NCBI GenBank assembly: GCA_017991415.1
Contig: JAGOQR010000001.1
Location: 212,490 to 276,489 of the forward strand
Direction of reading: 5' to 3'
Length of the DNA stretch: 64,000 nucleotides
From: Candidatus Magasanikiibacteriota bacterium
GTDB lineage: Bacteria > Patescibacteriota > Patescibacteriia > Magasanikbacterales > GWA2-37-8
Of the stretch, positions 66 through 60,854 are shown piece after piece; within the stretch, counting starts at the first letter, position 1; each line of letters starts with the position of its first letter. A program made the translations under genes and the position numbers. The notes under the pieces were generated by a model. It ran no database searches, was not told the DNA's origin, and saw only the letters and a list, made by a program, of their open reading frames with translations.

Positions 66-1886
66 CTATCTTGCTTGAGTTCGAAATGTTGCATTTCCTC
101 CACCAGTACGAGCGCCGCCGATATTACCAAGAATACTTGGTGCCTGCGTCGTTGTTTTAGAATTAGCAGCGCTTATCGTTCGCACTACCACCATATCGCC
201 TTCTACAAGACCGGACACAATTTCTGTTTGAGTATCATTAGACAAGCCAGCCTCTACTATCTGCTGACCAGGCGAAACAGCCGAAACAACACCCTGACTA
301 CTCTGCCCAGCACTTTGCTGAACTTCCAAAGACATTTGAGACTTATCAAACATCTCAACATAACTTATAGTCCCCTGACTTTTAACTGCACCACTCGCTA
401 CAAGCAGAACATCCTGCTTAAGTTGCGTAACGATAACTGCACTCACACTCATGCCCGACTTCACCCTATCGTCTTGTGTATCAAAAAGAATTTTTACATT
501 ATAAGTAACTACCCCCTGAGAAACAGTGCCAATACTATCTATCTCCGCTACCTGACCTGCAATACTTAAAGCATCAATTGCATCAAAGGTAAGTGTTACT
601 TTTTGACCAACAGCAACTTTGGAAACATCTACCTCGTTTAATGAAATCTCAGCAGTGTGTTGCTTGGTCGCCAGTGTAAGCAAAGCTCCTCCCGAAGAAA
701 TAGAGTCACCCTTTTTGAGCGTAATTTTTGCCACCACCCCAGCAAATGGTGCACGAATATAGTGGTCCGAAAGGGTCTGGTTCGCTGCAACAAGCGCATC
801 TTGCTTTTGTTGAATAGCTATCTTTTTGGCACGGATATCTAGCTCGTCTGCTGGATTCTTTATTTTAATAAGTGATAGTTCTTTTTCTTCAATACTTCTT
901 TGTGCGCTTATGATAGATTTTTTTGAACTTTCAATAGATTGCTCAATGGCAAGTAGGCTAGATAGATGATTATTTGTCGTACCTGTATAGGAATTAAGAC
1001 TAGAAAGATGAGTATTAGACAGCGAATTTGGTTTTAAATTATGTTCGGTAAGATTATCTTGGTAGAACTGAATTAAATTATTTGCACTTTTTACTGCCTC
1101 GGCAATTAATTTTGTTGTGTCATATGTTTGAGAAATTGCTGCTTCAATAGTTTCGACCGAAGAAAATCGGGTGATTATTTTATAATCTTGAAAATTTTTA
1201 TCATAGGCAATGCGAGCCTTTTCATATGCCGCACTCGCGTTATCTCTATACTCCAAAGCATGGTCATCATAAGCAGTCACTGCACCAGCGTAAAAATCAA
1301 TATTAGATTGGCTAGCATTAAACGAATTGGCAAATAAAATATCCTGAATACCCGTCATAACGGTAGGCAAAGCCAAAAAAGCATTCGAAACTGAATTAAA
1401 GCCATCTTCGTACGATTTTTTAATATCATCTTCTGCTTTTTGTTTTGATTCTTTTGCTTGTATCAAAGAATTTTCTGCTTGCAACACCGTGAGCCCGTCG
1501 GTTGGCTCAAGCACTTTATCCAATTCTAGCTTGGCTGTTTCGAGTGCTGTCTGCGCATCTCGCACAGATCGAACAGCATCTCTCGCATCAACCACTGCTA
1601 AAAGCGCCCCTGCTCTAACTTCCTGACCTTGTTTAACAGAGATAGATGTAAGCTCGCCACTCGCTTTTGCTTTTACATCAACCTGACTCACCGCCGAAAT
1701 TTGGCCACTACCAGAAATAGAAGTAATAAGCGTACCTTTGGTGACTGCAGCTAAAACATAACTAGTAGCTGATTTATCATTCTTAAAATGCTTATAGGCA
1801 AAATTTCCGCCTACACCGATAATACAAATAGCAATAAGCGTGTATGCCTTATGCATTTTTATGAAACCTACAATATTTTTTAACAT
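66..1886 (-). CDS. HlyD-family membrane-fusion / efflux periplasmic adaptor protein (MacA-like)
   Basis: 606 aa with an N-terminal TM segment, long coiled-coil alpha-hairpin region and C-terminal beta-barrel/lipoyl-like segments typical of HlyD/MFP adaptors. Gly-rich C-terminal tail. A partner pump gene is likely beyond the window start. Confidence 0.65.
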   Translation of the reverse strand: MLKNIVGFIKMHKAYTLIAICIIGVGGNFAYKHFKNDKSATSYVLAAVTKGTLITSISGSGQISAVSQVDVKAKASGELTSISVKQGQEVRAGALLAVVDARDAVRSVRDAQTALETAKLELDKVLEPTDGLTVLQAENSLIQAKESKQKAEDDIKKSYEDGFNSVSNAFLALPTVMTGIQDILFANSFNASQSNIDFYAGAVTAYDDHALEYRDNASAAYEKARIAYDKNFQDYKIITRFSSVETIEAAISQTYDTTKLIAEAVKSANNLIQFYQDNLTEHNLKPNSLSNTHLSSLNSYTGTTNNHLSSLLAIEQSIESSKKSIISAQRSIEEKELSLIKIKNPADELDIRAKKIAIQQKQDALVAANQTLSDHYIRAPFAGVVAKITLKKGDSISSGGALLTLATKQHTAEISLNEVDVSKVAVGQKVTLTFDAIDALSIAGQVAEIDSIGTVSQGVVTYNVKILFDTQDDRVKSGMSVSAVIVTQLKQDVLLVASGAVKSQGTISYVEMFDKSQMSLEVQQSAGQSSQGVVSAVSPGQQIVEAGLSNDTQTEIVSGLVEGDMVVVRTISAANSKTTTQAPSILGNIGGARTGGGNATFRTQAR

Positions 1887-14730: not shown

Positions 14731-14759
14731 TTGACAAAACAGCTAAAATATGCTATAGT
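14731..14759 (+). promoter_or_regulatory. consensus sigma-70 promoter TTGACA-N17-TATAGT
   Basis: TTGACA at 14731-14736, exact 17-nt spacer, TATAGT at 14754-14759. SD AAGGAG at 14771-14776 and ATG at 14785. Confidence 0.6.
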
Positions 14760-14784
14760 GGCTCCCAAATAAGGAGCCCTCGAA

Positions 14785-15006
14785 ATGAACGAACCCTTTC
14801 AACCCTTCGTCTGCGATTGGGACGATGAAAATCAGGGGATTCGTTTATTTGTCGAAGAAACCATCCCTCATTTTTTAATCGCGATTCTCATCGCAATTGC
14901 GCTAAAAAGGTGGAAATGGGACCCAAATCAAGAGCACGAAAAGGTCACTATTCCTACGGCACTCGCACCCCCAACCAGGAGAAGACGGTCATGGATCGAA
15001 TCTTGA
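14785..15006 (+). CDS. small hypothetical protein (first gene of GC-rich island A)
   Basis: 73 aa. Perfect SD AAGGAG 8 nt upstream. Contains one hydrophobic helix. Overlaps the next small ORF by 16 nt. Confidence 0.35.
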   Translation: MNEPFQPFVCDWDDENQGIRLFVEETIPHFLIAILIAIALKRWKWDPNQEHEKVTIPTALAPPTRRRRSWIES

Positions 15007-44150: not shown

Positions 44151-44179
44151 TTGACAGTCCGTTCTTTTTATGCTACACT
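44151..44179 (+). promoter_or_regulatory. consensus sigma-70 promoter TTGACA-N17-TACACT
   Basis: TTGACA at 44151-44156, 17-nt spacer, TACACT at 44174-44179. About 115-nt leader. SD GGAGAG 6 nt before the ATG at 44293. Confidence 0.5.
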
Positions 44180-44292
44180 CATCGGCTATATTGGTTCAGG
44201 TTCTATATCGATGTCTGTGGCGAATACCACGGAAATCGGTAGGGGTCTGACCCCTAACTACTCGACCACACATCAACATCGGAGAGATCGTC

Positions 44293-44850
44293 ATGGTGAA
44301 TACCTGCCGCAGCTTCGGCTGCATCCTGCTGGCCCTGGTCATCCTTGGTGGCTGCGGCTCGACCGACAAGCCGACCCCAATCTGCGCCCTCATCAGCGTC
44401 AACCCCAACACGCCGATGGGTAGCCAGATCGGACCCGGCGGCACGTGGGATCCGAAGGGAGAGGCCCAGACGGTCCTAGCCTTCACAATGTTCAGGGTGG
44501 ACGGCGAGGGCTGCCAAACGGCAACTTTCACCGGTCTACCCATGAGGGTTGACCCGAACACAAGCCAGTTCGTGATCGGCCGAAACTTCAGACTCGTCAG
44601 CGAACTGAATGGCCGCCTCGTCGATATCTCGGTCGGCACAATCATGAGCGACGGGAAACTCAACGTGAAACTCCAAACGAGAGAAAATCTCGAAAAAGGC
44701 AGCCGCTACTTTCAACTGCACCTGGACACGAGCAGCGCGCAACGTGGCGACAAGCTCGCTATCATCAGTGGCGCCGTCGAGTACGAGATCAGCGGGAAGA
44801 AGTTCACTTCGTACCAGCTGTGGTACGCGCCGCCACCGATCGAATACTGA
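44293..44850 (+). CDS. lipoprotein of unknown function encoded by high-GC island C (foreign composition)
   Basis: 185 aa. Signal peptide plus lipobox LVILGG|CGS. About 60% GC with GC3-rich codons. No recognisable domain. Confidence 0.5.
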   Translation: MVNTCRSFGCILLALVILGGCGSTDKPTPICALISVNPNTPMGSQIGPGGTWDPKGEAQTVLAFTMFRVDGEGCQTATFTGLPMRVDPNTSQFVIGRNFRLVSELNGRLVDISVGTIMSDGKLNVKLQTRENLEKGSRYFQLHLDTSSAQRGDKLAIISGAVEYEISGKKFTSYQLWYAPPPIEY

Positions 44851-44870
44851 TCAGACCACAAGGTCAGATC

Positions 44871-44923
44871 AACTGAACGGCTCGGATTCGCTCACGCGAC
44901 CGAGACGGTCAGACTTCATCCGA
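44871..44923 (+). terminator. 15-bp perfect inverted repeat (CTGAACGGCTCGGAT ... ATCCGAGCCGTTCAG) 3' of the island C gene
   Basis: GC-rich stem with a 23-nt loop. No immediate T-run. The AT-rich repeat terminator follows at about 45085-45112. Confidence 0.4.
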
Positions 44924-45029
44924 GCCGTTCAGATAGTGCAGTAATTTCTTGCTACATTATCTGAGCTCGGATGTTATAAATAACATAAATTTAAAAACAA
45001 CCTTTTAACAGATGGTTGTTTTTATTTTA

Positions 45030-51481: not shown

Positions 51482-52180
51482 TTAATCTTTAAATCTTTTA
51501 TTGTGAGCAAACATAAAACCCATAGTTTTATCAAATTTTGAAGGAAAAACTTGAACACCAAAACCACTGGCACGTAATTTTTCTTCTATCTCTTTACTTT
51601 TTTCTCTACTTTCATGGTACTCCAAAATTATATAATTGACCACGGACAAATCTTTCTCGCTCATACCATCAAAGACTTCATACTCGCCTCCTTCGATATC
51701 CATTTTTAATAAAGAAACTTTCTTAATTTTATTTTGTTTAAGTAAATCAGCAAAAGAAACTGCCCTTACTTGCACCGAACCTGGGATACGATCAAAATCT
51801 AGCCCTAATCTATGATTATGACTATCTGGTGCAACCACTAATTGCCTAGAACTAGTTTCCAAAGCCAGAGCCGCCTCAATAATCTCTACCTTGGAAATTT
51901 TATTTTCTTTGAGGTGTTTCTGCAGTGCTTTTATATTTTTTGGTTCTGGCTCTATAGCAAAAATTTTAACTCGGCTATTAAGAGAATGAGCATGCATCAC
52001 AAAAAATCCAGCATGAGCACCAACATCAACTATTGGATCTGTGGCATTTTGTATAACCTCATCAGCTCTACGGTATTCGTGAAGCTTAAAAATTTCGTTA
52101 AAAACACTTTGATCTGCCTCATCTCGGAGGTTAAACTGCCATTTATTCCCTTTTACAATAAGCTCTTCTATATTTTTCAT
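51482..52180 (-). CDS. FkbM-family SAM-dependent methyltransferase
   Basis: 232 aa with VVDVGAHAGFF (motif I) and an FkbM-type C-terminus. Confidence 0.6.
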   Translation of the reverse strand: MKNIEELIVKGNKWQFNLRDEADQSVFNEIFKLHEYRRADEVIQNATDPIVDVGAHAGFFVMHAHSLNSRVKIFAIEPEPKNIKALQKHLKENKISKVEIIEAALALETSSRQLVVAPDSHNHRLGLDFDRIPGSVQVRAVSFADLLKQNKIKKVSLLKMDIEGGEYEVFDGMSEKDLSVVNYIILEYHESREKSKEIEEKLRASGFGVQVFPSKFDKTMGFMFAHNKRFKD

Positions 52181-52228
52181 ATTGGTATATTTTAGCCTAA
52201 ATCAAACCAGGATACAAGGATATAACTA

Positions 52229-52257
52229 TTGACAAAAACTCAGTTAAATGATATGTC
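52229..52257 (+). promoter_or_regulatory. candidate promoter TTGACA-N17-(TG-n-)TATGTC for a small RNA
   Basis: Perfect -35 and 17-nt spacer. Extended -10 TGATATGTC, with the C at the last -10 position weakening it. Confidence 0.35.
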
Positions 52258-52261
52258 TGTA

Positions 52262-52418
52262 TTAGACCCTCTCTTTGAAGTAAGAGCACGCCAACCGCCT
52301 ACGTCTCGACGTAGATGCAACTTGCACAGAAATACTACCAAACACCTCCCCGGGTGTGCGGAGACATTCCAGCAGGTACGGAAGCGTGCGATTCTTCATT
52401 GAGAGGGTCGCTTTTTTT
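52262..52418 (+). ncRNA. candidate structured small RNA (about 150 nt, GC-rich, closed by a long-range stem GACCCTCTC/GAGAGGGTC plus T7 terminator)
   Basis: Local GC about 55% in an AT-rich intergenic region. 5' GACCCTCTCttt-GAAG pairs with CTTC-att-GAGAGGGTC followed by TTTTTTT. Internal helices AGAGCACGC/GCGTGCgaTCT and CTACGTC/GACGTAG. Identity unknown. An SRP-like GGTACGGAAGC motif is present but the fit is not convincing. Confidence 0.3.
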
Positions 52419-52461
52419 ATTTTAAAATTTTTTAAAATATAGATTAATGATATGATACCTA

Positions 52462-52559
52462 TGCTTTCGAAGGAAAAAAGCCAGATACCCAAGCTTCAAT
52501 GTTGGCAGGTAAGCCGATCAGAGTAGGGGTAAACTCGTACCTTTTCTCCTTCGAAAGCA
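52462..52559 (+). promoter_or_regulatory. long-stem hairpin in the 5' leader of the PQQ-dehydrogenase gene (TGCTTTCGAAGGAaAAAAG ... CTTTTcTCCTTCGAAAGCA, 60-nt loop)
   Basis: About 18-bp stem with one mismatch. The loop has sub-hairpins. Ends about 22 nt before the ATG at 52581. Possible cis-regulatory leader or sRNA. Confidence 0.3.
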
Positions 52560-52580: not shown

Positions 52581-53807
52581 ATGAAGAAGAAGATTTTTAT
52601 ATCTATAGTACTTACTGTCTTTGTTTTTCTTGGAATACTTGTTGGCACCTTTTACTACAAAAATCTACGAGGAGCTTGGGTTGCTATACAAGACTCCGAG
52701 GAAGTTACTCAAACTCAAGATAATACCCCAGCTACAAACACTTCTTCATCCCCTGCTCTCACAAAAAATAATACGGGCATACCATTGTCACTACCAGACG
52801 GTACCGCTATAAACACCCTCGCAACAGTACCAGGTGCCAGAGTAATGACAGTAGATAGCATGGGAAATCTATGGGTAAGCCAAACAAAACAAGGGCAGGT
52901 TACACTTGTAGAAATCAAGGAGGGCAAGGCTATTAAAACAACAGCCATATTTAAAAAGCTAAAAAATCCTCATGGTCTTGCATTTAATCCTGATGATCCG
53001 TTTGAACTATATATTGCCGAAGAAAATAAAATCTCTAAAGTACGAATCTACTCAGAAGATACGCTTCACAAAATAATAGATTTACCAAGTGGTGGCAGGC
53101 ATACAACCCGCACCATTGGCTTTGGTCCAGATAAAAGACTATACGTATCTATCGGGTCTTCCTGTGATACATGCAGAGAAAAAGACGAGAGACGAGCCAC
53201 TATCTACTCTATGGAAAAAGATGGTACTGATTTTAAACCGTACGCAAAAGGTTTACGAAACACCGTATTTTTTACTTGGAAAAATAACACTATGTGGGGC
53301 ACAGAAATGGGTCGGGATTTGCTCGGCGATGATTTGCCTCCTGATGAAATAAATATTGTACAAAATGAAAAAAATTATGGTTGGCCTATTTGTTATGGTC
53401 AAAATATTCACGATACAAAATTTGATAAAAATACATATATCCGCAACCCATGCATGACGCCATTTGAAACGCCAAGCCTCTACGATTTGCCAGCACACTC
53501 TGCCCCATTAGGCCTCGCTTTTATCCCAGACTCTGGTTGGCCACAAGATATGCAAGGTGATTTACTCGTTGCGTTTCATGGCTCATGGAACCGAACAACC
53601 CCGACTGGTTATAAAATTGTAAAATTAAAAATAGACTATAGCCAAGAACAACCGAAAGTTGTAGGCATGGAAGATTTTATTTCAGGCTGGTTGGGTACAA
53701 ACAAAAAAACCTACGGACGACCCGTAGATATTTTGACACTACCAAATGGAATTATGTACATTTCCGACGATAAGGCTGGTAAAATCTACGCTGCTGAGCT
53801 TAAATAA
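52581..53807 (+). CDS. PQQ-dependent soluble sugar (glucose/sorbosone) dehydrogenase family protein, beta-propeller
   Basis: 408 aa with N-terminal TM/signal. Motifs of the sGDH/YliI family (...IGFGPDKRLYVSIGSSCDTC..., HGSWNR). Confidence 0.65.
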   Translation: MKKKIFISIVLTVFVFLGILVGTFYYKNLRGAWVAIQDSEEVTQTQDNTPATNTSSSPALTKNNTGIPLSLPDGTAINTLATVPGARVMTVDSMGNLWVSQTKQGQVTLVEIKEGKAIKTTAIFKKLKNPHGLAFNPDDPFELYIAEENKISKVRIYSEDTLHKIIDLPSGGRHTTRTIGFGPDKRLYVSIGSSCDTCREKDERRATIYSMEKDGTDFKPYAKGLRNTVFFTWKNNTMWGTEMGRDLLGDDLPPDEINIVQNEKNYGWPICYGQNIHDTKFDKNTYIRNPCMTPFETPSLYDLPAHSAPLGLAFIPDSGWPQDMQGDLLVAFHGSWNRTTPTGYKIVKLKIDYSQEQPKVVGMEDFISGWLGTNKKTYGRPVDILTLPNGIMYISDDKAGKIYAAELK

Positions 53808-60549: not shown

Positions 60550-60786
60550 TTACATTGTTGGTTTAGGCTCACACATTTTACAATCTTTTTTATGGCAAAG
60601 TAGCAATTCCAAGGCTGAGACACCTACTAATACGTAGATAACTCTGGAAACTAAAGCAGCTTGACCACCAAAGAGAGACCCCACATCCCAACCAAACAAG
60701 CCTACGAGCAACCAATTAAGGCCGCCAACAATCACTAACAAAAAGGCGATCATGTGAACAACTTTATTTTCTTTCATACTTTTCAC
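60550..60786 (-). CDS. DUF378-family small membrane protein
   Basis: 78 aa, two TM, GGLNWLLVGLFGWD motif. Confidence 0.5.
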   Translation of the reverse strand: MKSMKENKVVHMIAFLLVIVGGLNWLLVGLFGWDVGSLFGGQAALVSRVIYVLVGVSALELLLCHKKDCKMCEPKPTM

Positions 60787-60854
60787 CCCCTCTCGATTAG
60801 ACAGATTAGAACTCTAATTTGCAAACCAATTATATCTTACCATACTACACCAAA

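Follow-up and report, generated by a model that had tools for sequence, protein, structure and literature searches.

A family of structured RNAs with a C-rich apical loop beside the FkbM-DUF6938 operon of Magasanikbacteria, and a second structured RNA next to it

The 400-nt intergenic region between an FkbM-family methyltransferase gene and a PQQ sugar dehydrogenase gene in an uncultivated groundwater member of the Magasanikbacteria is occupied by structured RNAs. Our comparisons confirm one of them, RNA (a), as a structured RNA gene on the forward strand; it belongs to a new, phylum-restricted family of small RNAs (sRNAs) that has no Rfam entry, and beside it lies a clade-specific structured RNA, element (b). 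This is not a new kind of system. In the reading that we consider probable, (a) is a stable, independently transcribed sRNA of ~150 nt from an undescribed family in Magasanikbacteria and related Parcubacteria, with a C-run loop that would act on ribosome-binding sites (RBSs) containing G-runs, and (b) is a second structured RNA that serves as an mRNA 5' end. The original prediction, made from a single stretch of 64,000 nt (hereafter the window), had described two elements in this gap, and all the sequence features that it listed are present. In window coordinates, the features are as follows.

51482-52180, reverse strand: FkbM-family methyltransferase gene (PF05050, E 9e-22), which opens the divergent FkbM-DUF6938 operon
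52229-52257, forward strand: promoter of RNA (a), with TTGACA at 52229-52234, 14 nt, and the extended -10 box TGATATGTC at 52249-52257
52264-52418, forward strand: RNA (a), ~150 nt, with a predicted start at A52264 or G52265 and a predicted end inside T7
52265-52273, forward strand: 5' strand of the closing helix P1, GACCCUCUC, with its partner GAGAGGGUC at 52401-52409
52299-52314, forward strand: side hairpin P3, CUACGU-CUCG-ACGUAG
52342-52357, forward strand: apical hairpin, ACACCU-CCCC-GGGUGU, with the C-run 52348-52351 inside the loop
52388-52418, forward strand: 3' module, a local 9-bp hairpin GCGAUUCUU-CAUUGA-GAGGGUCGC followed by U7, together a canonical intrinsic terminator
52448-52456, forward strand: extended -10 box of element (b), TGATATGAT, with no good -35 box
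52462-52559, forward strand: element (b), a 98-nt structured RNA with an 18-19-bp closing helix, 52462-52480/52541-52559
52581-53807, forward strand: GSDH-type PQQ sugar dehydrogenase gene (PF07995, E 1.5e-13), 3' of element (b) and without a Shine-Dalgarno sequence
60560-60800, reverse strand: DUF378 gene; its ribosome-binding motif, GAGAGGGGGUGA, is the window's sole start-site motif of the G5 type

The genes around these RNAs make little use of Shine-Dalgarno sequences. A Shine-Dalgarno-like tetramer is present in 6 of the 66 start regions of the window, by which measure the genome is almost devoid of such sequences. The -10 box of FkbM (TAAAAT at 52194-52189) is followed by the ATG only 8 nt further on, so the FkbM mRNA is probably leaderless. 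RNA (a) is preceded by a promoter in which TTGACA and TATGTC (52252-52257) are spaced by 17 nt, with TG at 52249-52250. The pattern TTGACA-N14-TGnTAnnnT has ten matches in the window, the tRNA-Asn promoter among them, against 1.96 expected (~5-fold enrichment), and the -35 box is conserved as TTGACA or TTTACA in every relative. The predicted transcription starts of (a) and (b) both fall at the foot of a closing helix.

The segment downstream of this promoter folds far more stably than its composition predicts. Its promoter, paired ends, nested helices and T7 were found as originally described, and its G+C content, put at ~55%, measured 0.52, compared with 0.37 for the whole window. The fold of 52262-52418 has a free energy of -64.1 kcal/mol against -38.3 +/- 4.0 for shuffled sequences (z = -6.5), and 0 of 200 shuffles were as stable; for a GC-rich leader elsewhere in the window, 44186-44295, structure was not significant (z -1.15). 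The closing arms GACCCTCTCTTTGAAG (52265-52280) and CTTCATTGAGAGGGTC (52394-52409) are 88% complementary, and P1 is extended by 52276-52280/52394-52398 and then by 52286-52291/52384-52389. The internal helices GCACGC/GCGTGC and CTACGT/ACGTAG are both confirmed. The apical hairpin contains CACCUCC (52343-52349), identical to the canonical anti-Shine-Dalgarno core, and the 20 nt around it are invariant across the window copy and its two closest relatives, L042 and L040. The loop itself is only CCCC, with the adjoining CACCU paired in the stem, which makes for a short seed.

The 3' end of (a) reads GAGAGGGUC-GC-U7, with T7 at 52412-52418. The local 9-bp terminator hairpin reuses the 3' arm of P1 and so excludes P1, which abuts the identical U-run. 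In L040 the second pair of the local hairpin survives two substitutions, one of C by U and one of G by A, which are also compatible with P2 and a P1 extension. Relatives of (a) preserve both its promoter and its terminator. More distant relatives have either P1 and the U-run only or a separate terminator in addition. The long closing helix is probably the terminator stem, which later protects both ends of the RNA.

Conservation and covariation in L042 and L040 support this structure and assign it to the forward strand. The FkbM relatives at these loci are 87% (L042) and 90% (L040) identical to that of the window, and (a) is 81-87% identical, with separate values of 88% for L042 and 83% for L040, whereas 37% of the 4-fold degenerate sites of FkbM differ among the three genomes (~63% identical). 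Because (a) and (b) are both more identical than these sites, we conclude that they are under purifying selection. The consensus structure of (a) has 52 pairs with 97.4% of cells paired (n = 3 sequences), against 29-46% in slid controls. In four pairs both partners differ between the sequences, and 4 of 500 shuffles attained as many. In the P1 helix stack, compensatory changes replace G-C by A-U at three pairs and a C-to-U change in L042 yields U-G, and in P3 pairing is retained in L040 (CUGCGG...CCGUAG), and the loop is UUCG in L042. Read on the forward strand, 152 of the 156 cells form canonical pairs, 11 of them G-U, compared with 141 of 156 on the reverse strand; since the 11 G-U pairs would become A-C mismatches on the other strand, they are compatible with the forward strand alone. 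The proposal that (a) is a stable noncoding RNA is therefore upheld on four counts: conservation above the neutral level, compensatory and wobble changes that fit the forward strand, the lack of a conserved open reading frame and recurrence of RNAs of this design at the same locus in other lineages.

Two open reading frames of 57 and 76 aa overlap (a). They start within its promoter, differ in frame between relatives, have no Pfam match and show no conserved reading frame in those relatives, and we rejected their coding potential on these grounds; the 76-aa antisense frame had already been judged spurious, correctly so. When the three close copies of (a) were made into a covariance model and used to search the window and ~290 kb of related loci, the model recovered these three alone, one of them in the window, and not the more distant RNAs described below.

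No known RNA family accounts for either element. Against Rfam 15 at the gathering score, the window and 17 loci yielded tRNAs only; in the intergenic region, a search at E <= 10 gave a best E of 2.8, at the level of chance matches and with no family, and at E <= 1 the RNA relatives in ten related loci had no family match. Covariance models of 6S, SRP, RNase P and tmRNA, to which (a) had earlier been compared by eye in vain, had no match in either search (E <= 10 in the window region and E <= 1 in the ten loci), and ARAGORN did not find a tmRNA. Riboswitch and other known aptamer models from Rfam did not match (b) in the same region and loci. We found no description of such RNAs in the literature on noncoding RNAs of CPR bacteria and Patescibacteria.

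RNAs of the same design recur beside FkbM in other lineages. A dehydrogenase-protein search of GTDB genomes and JGI metagenomes returned 37 loci, of which only L003, L012 and L004 are syntenic (L021 duplicates L004), and blastn and nhmmer detected no copy of (a) or (b) in those 37 loci. The public loci nearest to the window belong to Candidatus Magasanikbacteria MAGs, the name under which its FkbM protein is also annotated. Despite the lack of nucleotide similarity, the FkbM-dehydrogenase spacers of L003, L012 and L004 contain RNAs that are rich in G+C, start from a promoter and have a closing helix together with a U-run. A search based on FkbM, together with contigs, gave the close relatives L042 and L040 and several more distant ones. 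RNAs built in this way lie divergently upstream of the FkbM-DUF6938 operon in eight or more additional lineages, and those adjoining FkbM are found in L003/L012, L004/L046, L043, L053, L044 and L049/L051. The shared design consists of a TTGACA or TTTACA promoter and a closing helix of 9-20 bp, which either leads straight into a U-run or has an additional terminator behind it. Lengths range from 148 to 259 nt (1.7-fold), and the interiors carry variable inserted hairpins. The gene on the far side of the RNA differs by lineage (dehydrogenase, tRNA-Gln/FtsX, helicase or ClpP), which shows that the RNA is linked to the FkbM-DUF6938 operon and not to the dehydrogenase. Of the FkbM loci examined, L054 is the most distant, and there a small open reading frame stands in the place of the RNA.

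Sequence relationships within this set are uneven. Pairwise compensatory changes number seven between L049 and L051, five between L004 and L046 and six between L043 and L053, but the covariation is shallow, with three sequences for (a) and sequence pairs elsewhere. Partial links in sequence between subgroups reach z ~20 for L043-L053 and z ~8 for L004-L053; similarity stands at z ~4 for L049-L044 and L049-L004 and at z ~3 for (a)-L053, the last mainly in the P1 3' strand and U-run. MAFFT aligned (a) only poorly to L043 and L053. Judged from position, promoter, architecture and the short similarity at the 3' end, homology of (a) to the distant RNAs is probable but not proven. Three lineages, represented by L003/L012 and L044, have a tandem second RNA, and in the clade of the window the pair comprises (a) and (b).

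The sole feature common to all the RNAs is a run of C residues, C4 to C9 and often CCCCCUC, within a hairpin loop. In every one of the 14 RNAs the longest C-run falls inside a hairpin loop, as it does in 80 of 560 shuffles (14%) that kept the C-run in place. Each RNA has only one such loop, set within a much larger fold. A C-run of at least four residues in an apical hairpin loop, present in all 14, is a trait shared with the C-rich-loop class of sRNAs, and we compared (a) with the established examples.

In Xanthomonas, sX13 uses C-rich apical loops to repress, without a chaperone, mRNAs whose start sites have G-rich motifs; the genome has no consensus RBS, and a G-rich motif precedes the start in only a few per cent of its genes (PMC3771888). 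RNA (a) resembles sX13 in being highly structured, in displaying a C-run in an apical loop and in having a host with scarce G-rich RBS motifs. It differs in that sX13 is built of three short stem-loops with three C-rich loops (4C/5C) and has no helix closing the whole molecule; the two also come from different phyla and show no similarity by sequence or model, and the function of (a) is putative. Rfam's description of the actinobacterial 6C RNA (RF01066) gives it two conserved C-rich loops. These C-rich loops bind G-rich RBSs, such as AGGGGGG, independently of a chaperone, and the 6C sequence is highly conserved, with 91% identity among mycobacteria (PMC6486639). As in 6C, a C-rich hairpin loop is the conserved feature of the (a) family; unlike the much shorter 6C, members of this family are 148-259 nt long and evolve fast, with one C-rich loop and a long enclosing helix, and (a) has neither an Rfam match to RF01066 nor two adjacent C-loop hairpins. 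The UCCC-motif sRNAs of Firmicutes, of the RsaE/RoxS and RNAIII types, use unpaired C-rich seeds that resemble the anti-Shine-Dalgarno sequence (PMC2790875, PMC2837412). The hairpin of (a) likewise holds the anti-Shine-Dalgarno core CACCUCC, but (a) matches no model of these RNAs, and its host hardly uses Shine-Dalgarno sequences, so the set of targets would be small and special.

By analogy with these RNAs, we infer a trans-acting mechanism in which the C-loop of (a) would pair with mRNAs. The setting is given by the sequence and the fold: a strong promoter of housekeeping type places the predicted start at the foot of the long closing helix, this helix, or the local alternative hairpin, abuts U7 and is predicted to end the transcript, and the body folds into a rod with one side hairpin and the C-run displayed at its tip. 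The exposed run, in the family often CCCCCU(C), may pair with the rare G-runs at a few RBSs and thereby repress translation, and a seed of C4 to C9 would be selective in a genome almost without Shine-Dalgarno sequences.

A candidate target is found in the window. The start region of the DUF378 gene, with its G-run ribosome-binding motif (AGGGGGUGA), is the only 1 of 66 to carry a G5 motif. None of the other 65 forms as stable a duplex with the (a) loop, at -14.5 kcal/mol against a mean of -4.3 and an s.d. of 2.5 (~4 s.d.). The G-run motif before DUF378 is conserved in four genomes (the window, L004, L016 and L047), and in L004 the loop pairs over 10 of 11 nt with that genome's own DUF378 start region (-17.1 kcal/mol). 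RNA-target pairing was examined in the two genomes for which both the RNA and DUF378 were available, and the lead emerged post hoc after several options had been considered; we infer only that the DUF378 mRNA is a candidate target of the C-loop. Two other G-rich partners were set aside. A match inside the FkbM operon corresponds to the glycine codons of FAVGGAGAQK in DUF6938 and was judged an artefact, and pairing of the (a) loop with a G-run in (b) amounts to 4 bp (3 bp in L042) with a G-run that is itself paired internally.

Element (b) lies 43 nt beyond (a), closer than the 50 nt originally given, and otherwise has nearly the dimensions ascribed to it. Its 19-nt arms are 95% complementary and enclose 60 nt (fold z -5.2), forming a stem of 18-19 bp where ~18 had been predicted, and the 3' arm ends 21 nt (predicted, ~22) before the ATG at 52581; these 21 nt are A/U-rich and unpaired. 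In the three close genomes, ATTAATGATATGATA at the (b) promoter is invariant. Both the closing helix and the hairpins inside it are conserved, and some of their pairs show wobble or compensatory changes, among them an A-to-G change in L042 that gives G-U, and the 5' part is 81-96% identical among relatives (96% over 72 nt between L040 and the window). The copies in L040 and L042 contain an extra hairpin of ~57 nt that shows compensatory changes and is absent from the window copy. Related 21-nt sequences precede both elements, an observation beyond the original prediction: a direct repeat of 76% identity joins the (a) promoter at 52235-52255 to 52434-52454, and both copies end in TGATATG.

Because no terminator or U-run follows the (b) helix before the ATG, (b) is predicted to form the 5' end of the dehydrogenase mRNA in the window and L042. 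In L003, L004, L044 and L046 the dehydrogenase gene is instead served by a separate TTGACC promoter that leaves it only a short leader, and we therefore regard (b) as clade-specific. In L040 the dehydrogenase gene has been lost and (b) kept, which argues against a role restricted to the dehydrogenase, although the deletion could be recent. The earlier suggestion that (b) is a riboregulator or leader is borne out in part, in that (b) is a conserved structure where the dehydrogenase mRNA is predicted to begin. An exclusive leader does not fit, since (b) carries an extended -10 box of its own and L040, which lacks that gene, still maintains (b) under constraint. We found no expression platform in (b): there is no U-run, no sequestered start and no Shine-Dalgarno sequence to hide. 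We take (b) to be a second structured RNA that has an extended -10 promoter of its own and may have arisen by an old tandem duplication; given its poor -35 box, it could also be transcribed by read-through from (a).

As a 5'-terminal stem-loop of the dehydrogenase mRNA, (b) would most likely protect the 5' end. Stem-loops that stabilize mRNAs from their 5' terminus are known in bacteria, as in the ompA and aprE leaders. Like them, (b) has a helix that begins at the predicted first nucleotides and leaves the 21 nt before the AUG unpaired; unlike them, it is larger (98-155 nt), has a conserved and covarying interior and survives in L040 without the dehydrogenase gene. The conserved interior suggests that (b) may have a further function beyond end protection.

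These observations also bear on the possibility that the two elements together form a cis-acting leader of the dehydrogenase, a riboswitch or attenuator in which P1 and the local hairpin 52388-52411 compete to set read-through. The P1 3' arm can indeed form the canonical 9-bp terminator hairpin, with which one substitution pair in L040 is compatible; no terminator lies between (b) and the ATG; and the U-run of (a) is complementary to an A-run in the 5' arm of (b). We nonetheless consider this reading improbable, because the RNA adjoins FkbM in L040, L043, L049, L051 and L053 with no dehydrogenase gene following, because strong terminators and a separate TTGACC promoter precede the dehydrogenase in L003, L004, L044 and L046, and because (b) has its own conserved extended -10 box and no match to a riboswitch family. 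A different explanation would take the elements for palindromes in the DNA, such as MITE-like or REP-like repeats or protein-binding sites, or for a small protein-coding gene. That (b) is a nearly perfect 19-bp inverted repeat and an insertion relative to the short leaders of L003 and L004, and that the 57-aa and 76-aa frames overlap (a), would fit such accounts, which we find scarcely credible: the elements are single copy in the 64 kb and in ~290 kb of related loci, viral contigs scanned with the conserved cores of (a) and (b) gave nothing, the 11 G-U pairs would be A-C mismatches on the opposite strand, interior helices show compensatory changes, and the frames begin inside a promoter, shift between relatives and match no Pfam family.

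The main rival to mRNA pairing leaves (a) as an RNA gene and assigns the C-loop to a protein. On this account, (a) would be a sponge or ribonucleoprotein scaffold whose C-loop and rod are bound by a KH-type poly(C)-binding protein or by a product of the FkbM-DUF6938 operon. A universal sequence feature that is only a C-run of variable length and context suits a loose protein site equally well, the link to the FkbM operon survives rearrangements on the far side, and the rod-like closing helices are long and conserved. Searches with Pfam, however, found no RNA-binding domain in proteins encoded by neighbours of (a), and the C-rich apical loops of characterized bacterial sRNAs base-pair with their targets without chaperones; we regard protein binding as a real but minority possibility. 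It is, by comparison, very improbable that (a) is a highly divergent housekeeping RNA, with 6S the obvious candidate, that escapes the Rfam models in this phylum. A strong promoter, a length of 150-260 nt, a closing helix of considerable length and a sequence that is poorly conserved from one lineage to another would all be expected of 6S RNA, and no 6S RNA is annotated in the window. Yet no model of 6S, SRP, RNase P or tmRNA matched even at E <= 10, (a) folds into a multibranched structure, and L043 and L053, which have short forms of the RNA, show continuous rods with small internal loops and no large central bubble. The 1.7-fold length range produced by inserted hairpins and the presence of two tandem copies in some genomes likewise speak against 6S, and we know of no conserved C-rich apical loop as a 6S feature.

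The reading of (a) that we favour is an sRNA with a C-run loop that would pair with G-run RBSs. The principle itself is not new, as C-rich-loop sRNAs are established in other phyla. A broader version, which we think unlikely in its full form, is that these RNAs are phylum-specific, modular and fast-evolving translational regulators: the few mRNAs with G-rich RBSs, such as that of DUF378, would make up a small regulon gated by an abundant RNA with an anti-Shine-Dalgarno-like C-run, tandem copies and inserted hairpins would tune the system, and (b) would represent a degenerate paralogue recruited to form the 5' end of an mRNA. CPR bacteria have tiny genomes with few recognizable regulators, and hardly any regulatory RNAs are known in them. 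A family with a strong promoter and a clear structural signature that is absent from Rfam offers annotators a new model. It also illustrates how a structured RNA can grow rapidly by modules, here from 148 to 259 nt, while its closing helix and loop stay fixed, and it provides a testable hypothesis, in which the C-run loop would act on the rare G-run RBSs of a genome nearly free of Shine-Dalgarno sequences.

Shine-Dalgarno sequences are nearly absent from this genome: across the whole window, an SD-like tetramer lies no more than 20 nt from the start in only 6 of 66 start regions. A small unannotated ORF has one of the rare SD-bearing starts: within window positions 14731-14800, a canonical promoter, TTGACA-N14-TGCTATAGT, precedes AAGGAG and then an ATG near 14786. 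Two genes, one encoding the FkbM methyltransferase and the other a DUF378 protein, have the following start-proximal features:

Window 52181-52194, minus strand: FkbM -10 box, TAAAAT, ending 8 nt upstream of the ATG and conserved in relatives.
Window 60560-60800, minus strand: DUF378 gene, whose G-rich ribosome-binding motif, GAGAGGGGGUGA, is unusually strong.

Because its -10 box lies so close to the ATG and is retained in relatives, FkbM mRNA is probably leaderless. The DUF378 motif is kept 5' of DUF378 genes in four genomes (the window, L004, L016 and L047), and it is the top predicted partner of the C-loop, the apical hairpin loop with a C-run found in RNA (a) (the ~150-nt structured RNA divergently upstream of FkbM) and in related RNAs.

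In the close relative L040, which has both (a) and the second structured RNA, (b), the PQQ dehydrogenase gene is wholly missing (L040 1839-2500), and ~190 nt of non-coding sequence separates (b) from tRNA-Gln, which comes next downstream. At the position corresponding to the FkbM-linked RNA, L047 has a ~450-nt G+C-rich stretch without an obvious gene, adjoining a DUF378 gene (819-1500, minus strand); this stretch is possibly a larger form related to the RNA. In L054 (1075-1500, minus strand), which is the most distant of the FkbM loci examined, the RNA position holds an ORF of ~65 aa with an SD-like motif, GGGGAGG, downstream of the same promoter type.

Elsewhere in the window, a 185-aa gene is preceded by a promoter of the form TTGACA...TGCTACACT together with a G+C-rich leader (44151-44292), and long inverted repeats come after the gene (44851-44950). 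The fold of this leader is non-significant (z -1.15), and a Pfam search with the 185-aa gene gave no match.

The two structured RNAs also share a short complementarity, between GCUUUUUU at the end of (a) (window 52410-52417) and AAAAAAGC, which forms part of (b)'s 5' arm (52474-52481). This match is probably trivial pairing of an A-run with a U-run; it would be relevant if the terminator were read through.
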